Source: Eukaryota sp. GEM-RC1
Taxonomy: Eukaryota
Length of the DNA stretch: 64,000 nucleotides
NCBI GenBank assembly: GCA_040285855.1
Contig: JAUFOQ010000003.1
Location: 1-64,000 of the forward strand
Direction: 5' to 3'
The notes below the pieces were generated by a model. The model saw only the letters and a program-made list of their open reading frames with translations. It searched no databases and had not been told where the DNA came from. The translations under genes and the position numbers were made by a program. Of the stretch, positions 21,551 to 21,949 are shown one piece after another. Numbering within the stretch: position 1 is the stretch's first letter; every line of letters begins with the position of its first letter.

Positions 21551-21949
21551 CAGGTTAGTAGTTCTGTATTTTAGTTTCTTTAGATTCTATTTACATAATA
21601 AATACCTGTCTCACGAAGACAGAGGTCCACCATGGTCCGGGTGGTAACCGACTTCAACGGCCTAGCATCATCGTGAGTTCGACTCCCTATGATCGTAAAC
21701 ATTTTTAAATACCAAGGAAGGTTTAAAAAAGAAAAGCCAAAATTTCATTTCAGATTTGGTTTCTGAAAACAATTCTGAAATTTTTGGTAAGTTACAAAAG
21801 CGAAGCTGGAGAAGAGTTTTGCCTAAGTAACTATGTTTTAATCAATTTTATATATATGTCGTTTTCGTACAGAATTCAATTAATTATGAATTTCATTTAT
21901 TAGTTAGTTTAGTTTTCTTTTAGAATTTTTTCAAATTTTAATAATAAAT

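Follow-up and report, generated by a model that had tools for sequence, protein, structure and literature searches.

In the 28S genes of Drosophila, template jumps at the 5' end of R2 have joined that element to tRNA-Lys, tRNA-Gly and U12 snRNA, and several copies can stem from one jump (PMC3414825). The R2 SIDEs and R2/R1 hybrid SIDEs described in the same source have the R2 ribozyme as their head and are co-transcribed with 28S. U6/L1 chimeric retrocopies, which can form by ligation, show 4-8 T at the junction with a 5'-truncated L1 (PMC6789731), and tRNA/L1 chimeras are mostly antisense half-tRNAs (PMC11838501). The MINE (WEIRD-MGL) chimeras of Magnaporthe have a 1.1-kb head and represent many dispersed, independent events (PMC2104539). 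tRNA-derived SINEs with LINE tails combine a tRNA-like head, carrying A and B boxes, with the 3' end of a partner LINE; where the partner has a restriction-like endonuclease (Entamoeba R4, Chlamydomonas RandI), the table part of the same source gives heads of unknown origin, not tRNA (PMC3747384). The described trypanosomatid CRE elements (SLACS, CZAR, CRE1/2) target spliced-leader genes (PMC12278014). A tRNA-headed, rDNA-specific SINE was not found in literature searches, in the passages covered of PMC5786205, PMC3747384, PMC5035012, PMC4640811 and PMC12278014, or in parts 1-2 of 3 of section 8 of a review of rDNA transposons (PMC10946416).

The insert described here lies in a window of 64 kb, ie the whole stretch of DNA that was analysed. 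The nearest named proteins are 95% identical and are assigned to 'Eukaryota sp. GEM-RC1', the name under which the DNA is deposited. The label GEM-RC has been used for an isolate of Skoliomonas, a free-living metamonad (10.1101/2023.05.03.539051), and the host is likely a Skoliomonas-type metamonad or a close organism. Three rDNA units are found by Rfam on the - strand of the window, and only two of them extend into the 3' region of the LSU gene. The initial annotation had reported a 333-bp insert, made of a ~90-nt head and a ~240-nt tail from the 3' end of LINE family B, with a second copy at 5727-6061; these coordinates were exact. The insert in unit 2 (21617-21949) is 333 bp long, with a 90-nt head and a 243-nt tail, and the copy in unit 1 is 335 bp long (head 5727-5819, tail 5820-6061). 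The features are as follows.

21128-24830, - strand: host LSU rRNA gene of unit 2, interrupted by inserts (Rfam)
21538-21550: leftmost 13-bp duplication in unit 2; maps to E. coli 23S 2593-2605, 12/13 identical
21551-21603, + strand: stub of 53 nt in unit 2, likely the 3' end of a related LINE; starts with a 9-nt reverse complement of the target
21604-21616: 13-bp target-site duplication left of the insert
21617-21706, + strand: head, with a 9-nt leader, a 72-nt decayed tRNA-like body (21626-21697) and a 9-nt trailer ending in T5
21617-21622, + strand: first 6 nt of the head, reverse complement of the adjoining target; possible snap-back extension at the 5' junction
21633-21644, + strand: A-box-like motif, 1 mismatch to the consensus
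21676-21686, + strand: B-box-like motif, 1 mismatch; 44 nt from the A box
21702-21706, + strand: T5 run at the head/tail junction, likely a Pol III terminator
21707-21949, + strand: tail, the 3'-terminal 243 nt of LINE family B; holds T5 (21781) and T6 (21926)
21950-21962: 13-bp target-site duplication right of the insert
5649-5713, + strand: stub of 65 nt in unit 1, with the same 5' junction as the unit-2 stub
5727-6061, + strand: second copy of head and tail, unit 1; B box damaged
6075-6657, + strand: 5'-truncated family-B LINE at the same site, unit 1 only; endonuclease C-terminus and 3' UTR

Target duplications of 13 bp bracket the insert in both copies. Each unit has a stub with a duplication of its own, which precedes the insert. 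The layout of unit 1 at 5636-6074 equals that of unit 2 and is followed by the truncated family-B LINE and then by another duplication, so that three inserts are stacked at the site in unit 1 and two in unit 2. All of them are on the + strand, antisense to the rRNA. The stubs resemble the family-B 3' end and likely represent a third family at the same site. The 5S genes (2329-2448, 18217-18336 and 30254-30373, - strand) lie within the rDNA repeat, on the strand of the large rRNAs, and a decayed copy of the 5S-containing spacer region is present at 44098-44821. The third rDNA unit breaks off in the spacer (32762-33218) beside a - strand LINE fragment which, by eye, resembles P0064.

The stretch 2593-2605 is presumably helix 93 of the peptidyl-transferase centre. 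R2 lies on the same strand as the rRNA. An R2-type rDNA element is ruled out by the antisense orientation and by the site, 2593-2605 instead of 1928/1929. In E. coli-equivalent numbering the target is ~670 positions downstream of the R2 site, which is at 1928/1929 (PMC2048585). Group I introns L2593 occupy position 2593 too (PMC1995217), and the planarian LIN9/24/26 families target 28S (PMC4640811). Both the planarian families and the RT1/RT2 elements of Anopheles could share the 2593-2605 site, which may therefore not be new. The Anopheles elements insert some 600-700 nt downstream of R1/R2.

Like the products of the R2 jumps, the insert has a small RNA sequence 5' of an rDNA-targeted LINE with a restriction-like endonuclease, within the LSU gene. 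Unlike them, it has a LINE part of only 243 nt and a decayed head without CCA and with a trailer ending in T5, and it sits antisense to the rRNA, at a different LSU site, in a protist. With the U6/L1 retrocopies it shares the joining of an apparent Pol III RNA with a short T-run end to a 5'-truncated LINE, within one target duplication, but here the head is tRNA-like (with no Rfam match), and the LINE carries a restriction-like endonuclease and is tied to one rDNA target. It differs from tRNA/L1 chimeras in that the head is sense and full-length. As in MINE, LINE 3' parts in a microbial eukaryote are fused to a non-coding RNA for which no source gene turned up; in contrast to MINE, there are two copies, at one rDNA site and with the same junctions. 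The tRNA-like head with A and B boxes and the partner LINE 3' end are those of tRNA-derived SINEs, whereas the internal T5 and T6 runs and a tail without separate history are not; the two copies, with the same neighbour and junctions, need not be independent. SIDEs are likewise short, non-autonomous inserts at the 28S site of their LINE and use its 3' end, but the present insert is antisense and its head is absent from the known family-B coding part. Families B and C resemble the CRE clade in the order of RT, then zinc knuckle and restriction-like endonuclease motif (by eye), and differ from CRE elements in sitting in LSU rDNA.

The A and B boxes were scored against their consensus with a cut-off of one mismatch each. 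In the unit-2 head the two are at tRNA spacing. When the head was shuffled 20000 times with its dinucleotides preserved, such a pair arose twice, and among the four one-mismatch B-box matches on both strands of the window only that of the head is paired with an A box. Transcription by Pol III is expected to start about 16 nt before the A box, and both copies begin 16 nt before theirs. ARAGORN found no tRNA gene at the head with default settings, and when relaxed to 80% of its threshold it called a 72-nt tRNA-Glu(TTC), in unit 2 only. Three Rfam scans of the head returned 0, 1 and 0 matches, the single match being mir-9428 on the opposite strand (E 8.8), ie no credible family; U6, tRNA-Sec and vault RNA are thus unsupported by Rfam as identities for the head. 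A tRNA covariance model of our own, built from 18 phage T5 tRNAs (a poor alignment with 5 base pairs), produced 14 weak matches, the head not among them, and an nhmmer profile recovered the B box alone (E 6.2). The stems of the head are broken, with 4 of 7 pairs in the acceptor and 2 of 5 in the T stem, and its folding against shuffles gave no signal (z 0.4-1.2). A working tRNA or pre-tRNA was rejected on the basis of the broken stems, the default ARAGORN result and the absence of an Rfam match.

The two-motif pattern of the head was also searched for in viral sequence, where it coincided with an ARAGORN tRNA at 23 of 32 loci (10 Asp, 4 Glu); the loci with the exact 57-nt span of the head were all tRNA-Asp (7/7). 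The pattern contains the T-loop motif, and is therefore a signature of tRNA and not of descent from one isotype. Judged by sequence, the tRNA likeness of the head lies in its two boxes and their spacing, not in structure. The Pol III/tRNA similarity proposed earlier for the head thus holds for boxes and spacing and fails for structure (Rfam, covariance model, stems). The A box, B box and T5 that had been reported are all present in unit 2, but the unit-1 B box has three mismatches, and the TTC anticodon-like loop was recovered in unit 2 at the relaxed threshold, not in unit 1 and not at default. Searches with the exact head motifs gave five loci in the metagenome collection, two in the prokaryote collection and none in the viral collection; the flanking bases matched at chance level (25-29 of 99 in the metagenomes, 17/69 and 20/69 in the prokaryotes). 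No stand-alone head locus occurs within the window. Against 143 proteins the head gave one match, of 6 residues, as expected by chance. Among 24 sequencing runs listed, at most 0.22 of 203 sampled words were present in any one, and these are likely conserved rRNA of other organisms; the runs therefore say nothing about habitat, expression or copy number.

The T5 run directly abuts the LINE sequence, 9 nt past the tRNA-like body. All three copies of the host 5S gene end in T5 and, by analogy with them, the junction T5 is likely a Pol III terminator in this host and may be the natural 3' end of the small RNA. Two further runs of at least five T are present in the tail, T5 at 21781 and T6 at 21926, which argue against one Pol III transcript across head and tail. 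Internal oligo-T has been taken as an argument against Pol III transcription elsewhere, although the SINEU families are mobile despite it (PMC4494074), and this keeps a mobile, SINE-like reading alive. Compared with the usual features of a SINE, the insert has A and B boxes at tRNA spacing (unit 2), a LINE 3' tail and a target duplication; freedom from internal Pol III terminators is what it lacks. As in small RNA/LINE chimeras, there is a direct join within one duplication, the junction falls at a T5 end, and the LINE part is that of a current family.

The tail starts within the last codons of the family-B ORF and is 97.5-98.4% identical to the family-B 3' end, every difference being in the first ~33 nt. 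Compared with the neighbouring truncated family-B copy, there are 4 events in unit 1 and 6 in unit 2, again in the first ~33 nt only, and the last ~210 nt are identical across all three copies in the window. A search with a 121-aa fragment returned no longer family-B proteins, and these were reached via a 203-aa fragment and a cluster look-up. One of them, P0143, is a 784-aa protein from another contig, of 2.55 Mb; it runs from RT through the endonuclease to a C-terminus which equals that of the unit-2 tail over 40 of 40 residues. The difference around the stop codon noted in the initial annotation is real in comparison with the neighbouring truncated copy, but is not a difference from family B as a whole, where P0143 is identical. 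Since P0143 carries the same 3' variant, that difference is best described as a LINE polymorphism among family-B copies, and the divergence of the tail, which had been put forward in favour of a SINE, is removed as an argument. The tail itself appears to have no history separate from family B. Within it, a 35-nt imperfect palindrome at 21747-21781, 86% self-complementary, may form an RNA hairpin that the LINE protein recognises.

Family B contains an RT domain (Pfam RVT_1) followed by a restriction-like endonuclease, and the best matches among solved structures are R2 proteins (3 matches). By eye, P0143 shows a zinc knuckle and the motif of a restriction-like endonuclease; zinc fingers were absent from its N-terminal end on inspection, and one match annotated as SLACS-like is 27% identical to it. 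From the order of RT and endonuclease, the motifs seen by eye and the names of the matches, family B looks CRE-like. Its sister, family C (8648-11860, + strand), is a full-length but frameshifted LINE in unit 1. It is antisense as well, and a 12-bp duplication marks its LSU site at E. coli-equivalent 789-800. The first 42 residues of protein P0125, on another contig, correspond to LSU sequence read antisense, a hint that family C occupies LSU at that locus too. Scrambled fragments of families B and C are present outside the rDNA at 40581-43325 (- strand); sequence of family B is therefore not confined to the target site.

The comparison of copies covers the two that lie in the 64-kb window. 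Site, 5' start and head/tail junction are the same in both, and each follows a stub that begins with the 9-nt inverted sequence. None of 5558 control windows reached a reverse complement of 9 nt like that of the stub, while a match as long as the 6-nt one of the head occurred in about 1.4% of them. The inverted starts suggest a fold-back of the cut strand during insertion and, being common to both copies, point to their common descent. It is likely from these comparisons that both copies are one event, duplicated with the rDNA unit. Of the eight differences between the copies, six sit in the head (binomial P 0.007; counting an adjacent swap once gives 0.02), and the two stubs differ by two indels. 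However, when the rest of the two rDNA units was divided into 122 windows of 93 nt without overlap, 11 of these also had at least six differing events. The SSU genes (13211-14994 and 25281-27063) differ by 81 substitutions and 8 indels (5%), clustered in one patch which reflects either rDNA variants or a mosaic consensus, whereas the 5' LSU parts of the two units are nearly identical. Because the units differ in patches in this way, divergence between the copies gives no date, and the cluster in the head may come from assembly error or conversion.

The reading we favour, with moderate confidence, is that the insert is a one-off chimera in which the family-B enzyme copied its own RNA and went on to a U-ended Pol III RNA, the rDNA unit being duplicated later. 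The endonuclease of family B would have nicked the rDNA at the 28S site and primed reverse transcription there; once 243 nt had been copied, a jump would have taken the enzyme to the 3' oligo-U end of a Pol III RNA of 85-90 nt. Alternatively, the two RNAs may have been ligated beforehand; the sequence cannot tell a jump from a ligation. The source RNA would already have been something other than a working tRNA, either from a tRNA pseudogene or from a tailless tRNA-derived repeat, because the head has broken stems next to a tail that is still fresh. Fold-back of the cut target strand may have given rise to the 5' junction, and the unit would have been copied by unequal exchange or conversion. 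Pol III transcription begun in the inserted head would terminate at T5, which would keep the chimera from spreading in the manner of a classical SINE.

This reading is favoured because the T5 is exactly at the junction and the 5S genes end in the same way, because the tail holds two more T runs, equals P0143 in unit 2 and ends identically in three copies, because the copies have the same site, junctions and stub, and because the divergence of the heads is matched or exceeded in other windows of the rDNA. The captured Pol III transcript, one of two possibilities raised initially, has thus gained support from the junction T5, the 5S ends, the T runs of the tail and the common junctions. Several points weigh against it. 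A stand-alone locus for the head did not turn up in the window or in the public collections searched. The head is far more decayed than the near-exact tRNAs captured by R2, and such decay is typical of SINEs. The clustering of differences in the head also fits two insertions from variant masters, and the two indels between the stubs were counted on the same side, as was the remark by the authors of the R2 study that strong amplification of a single inserted rDNA unit had never come to their notice in Drosophila (PMC3414825).

A possible but less likely explanation is that head and tail form a young, non-autonomous SINE family, inserted at the 28S site more than once by family B and transcribed by leaky Pol III activity or by antisense read-through of the rDNA. 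The classical layout (tRNA-like head with boxes, LINE 3' tail, target duplication), the start of both copies at the expected Pol III position, the SINE-like decay of the head and the clustering there of the differences between copies all fit such a family, and for the R2-U12 fusion retrotransposition as a subfamily is the view favoured in PMC3414825. Set against this are the T5 at the junction and the T5 and T6 of the tail, a tail equal to the long family-B copy, the same neighbour and junctions in both copies, the damaged B box in unit 1, and the equal local divergence of other rDNA windows. The fuller proposal, a tRNA-headed SINE or a SINE at birth which would take its strict specificity for the 28S peptidyl-transferase region from an antisense CRE-like LINE in a metamonad, is held equally tentatively.

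It is improbable that full-length family B begins with the head, which would make the insert an internally deleted element, although elements of that kind, the R2 SIDEs, are known in 28S (PMC3414825). An antisense LINE would have to bring its own promoter, and A and B boxes could serve as one; the known family-B sequence also stops short of the 5' end, P0143 starting without N-terminal zinc fingers. However, the head matches none of P0121, P0142 and P0143, so that the earlier idea of the head as a part of family B fails for the known coding part, to which the comparison is limited. In the related family C, which is full-length, the 5' end is a T run directly ahead of the ATG and no such head is present. 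A T5 resembling a terminator, if it directly followed the promoter, would also cut transcription short.

A retrocopy of the head alone and a long family-B copy, inserted separately at this site and fused by a later deletion which removed the duplication between them, would accord with the tandem stacking common here, but this is very unlikely: no trace of a 13-bp duplication is seen between head and tail, the break would need to fall exactly at the end of the T5, and the head-only RNA would lack the family-B 3' end carried by every other B-type insert here. Least credible of all is a head not derived from tRNA, ie another small RNA or unrelated DNA with boxes by chance, a view in keeping with the Rfam, covariance model and folding results but opposed by the rarity of the box pair, in shuffles and in the window at that stringency, and by its coincidence with viral tRNAs, including all those with the 57-nt span.

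The insert is therefore probably an accident of a kind already described, though in a host where it is new and at a site that is unusual, and not the mark of a new parasite family. A one-off chimera would add an early-branching LINE type, in a metamonad, to the LINEs that capture small RNAs, and its layout of head plus tail is the one from which SINEs are thought to arise. It would also point to an abundant, decayed tRNA-like RNA in the host. Should the insert belong to a true mobile family, that family would be a tRNA-headed SINE directed at rDNA, ie a site-specific hyperparasite of rDNA, and a signal of 243 nt would be sufficient for site-specific insertion. The partner LINE is of note either way, being antisense at 2593-2605 and having a sister family at a second LSU site.

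Other mobile sequence is present in the remainder of the window. An LTR retrotransposon at 45201-52003 (+ strand) has RT, RNase H and integrase, and identical terminal repeats of 100 bp. At 52430-63471, inverted repeats of ~330 bp (80% identical) surround ORFs, one of which (57145-58869) has a Ulp1 peptidase domain and another (60025-61461) the exonuclease domain of DNA polymerase B; this region is possibly a decayed large DNA transposon or virus-like element.
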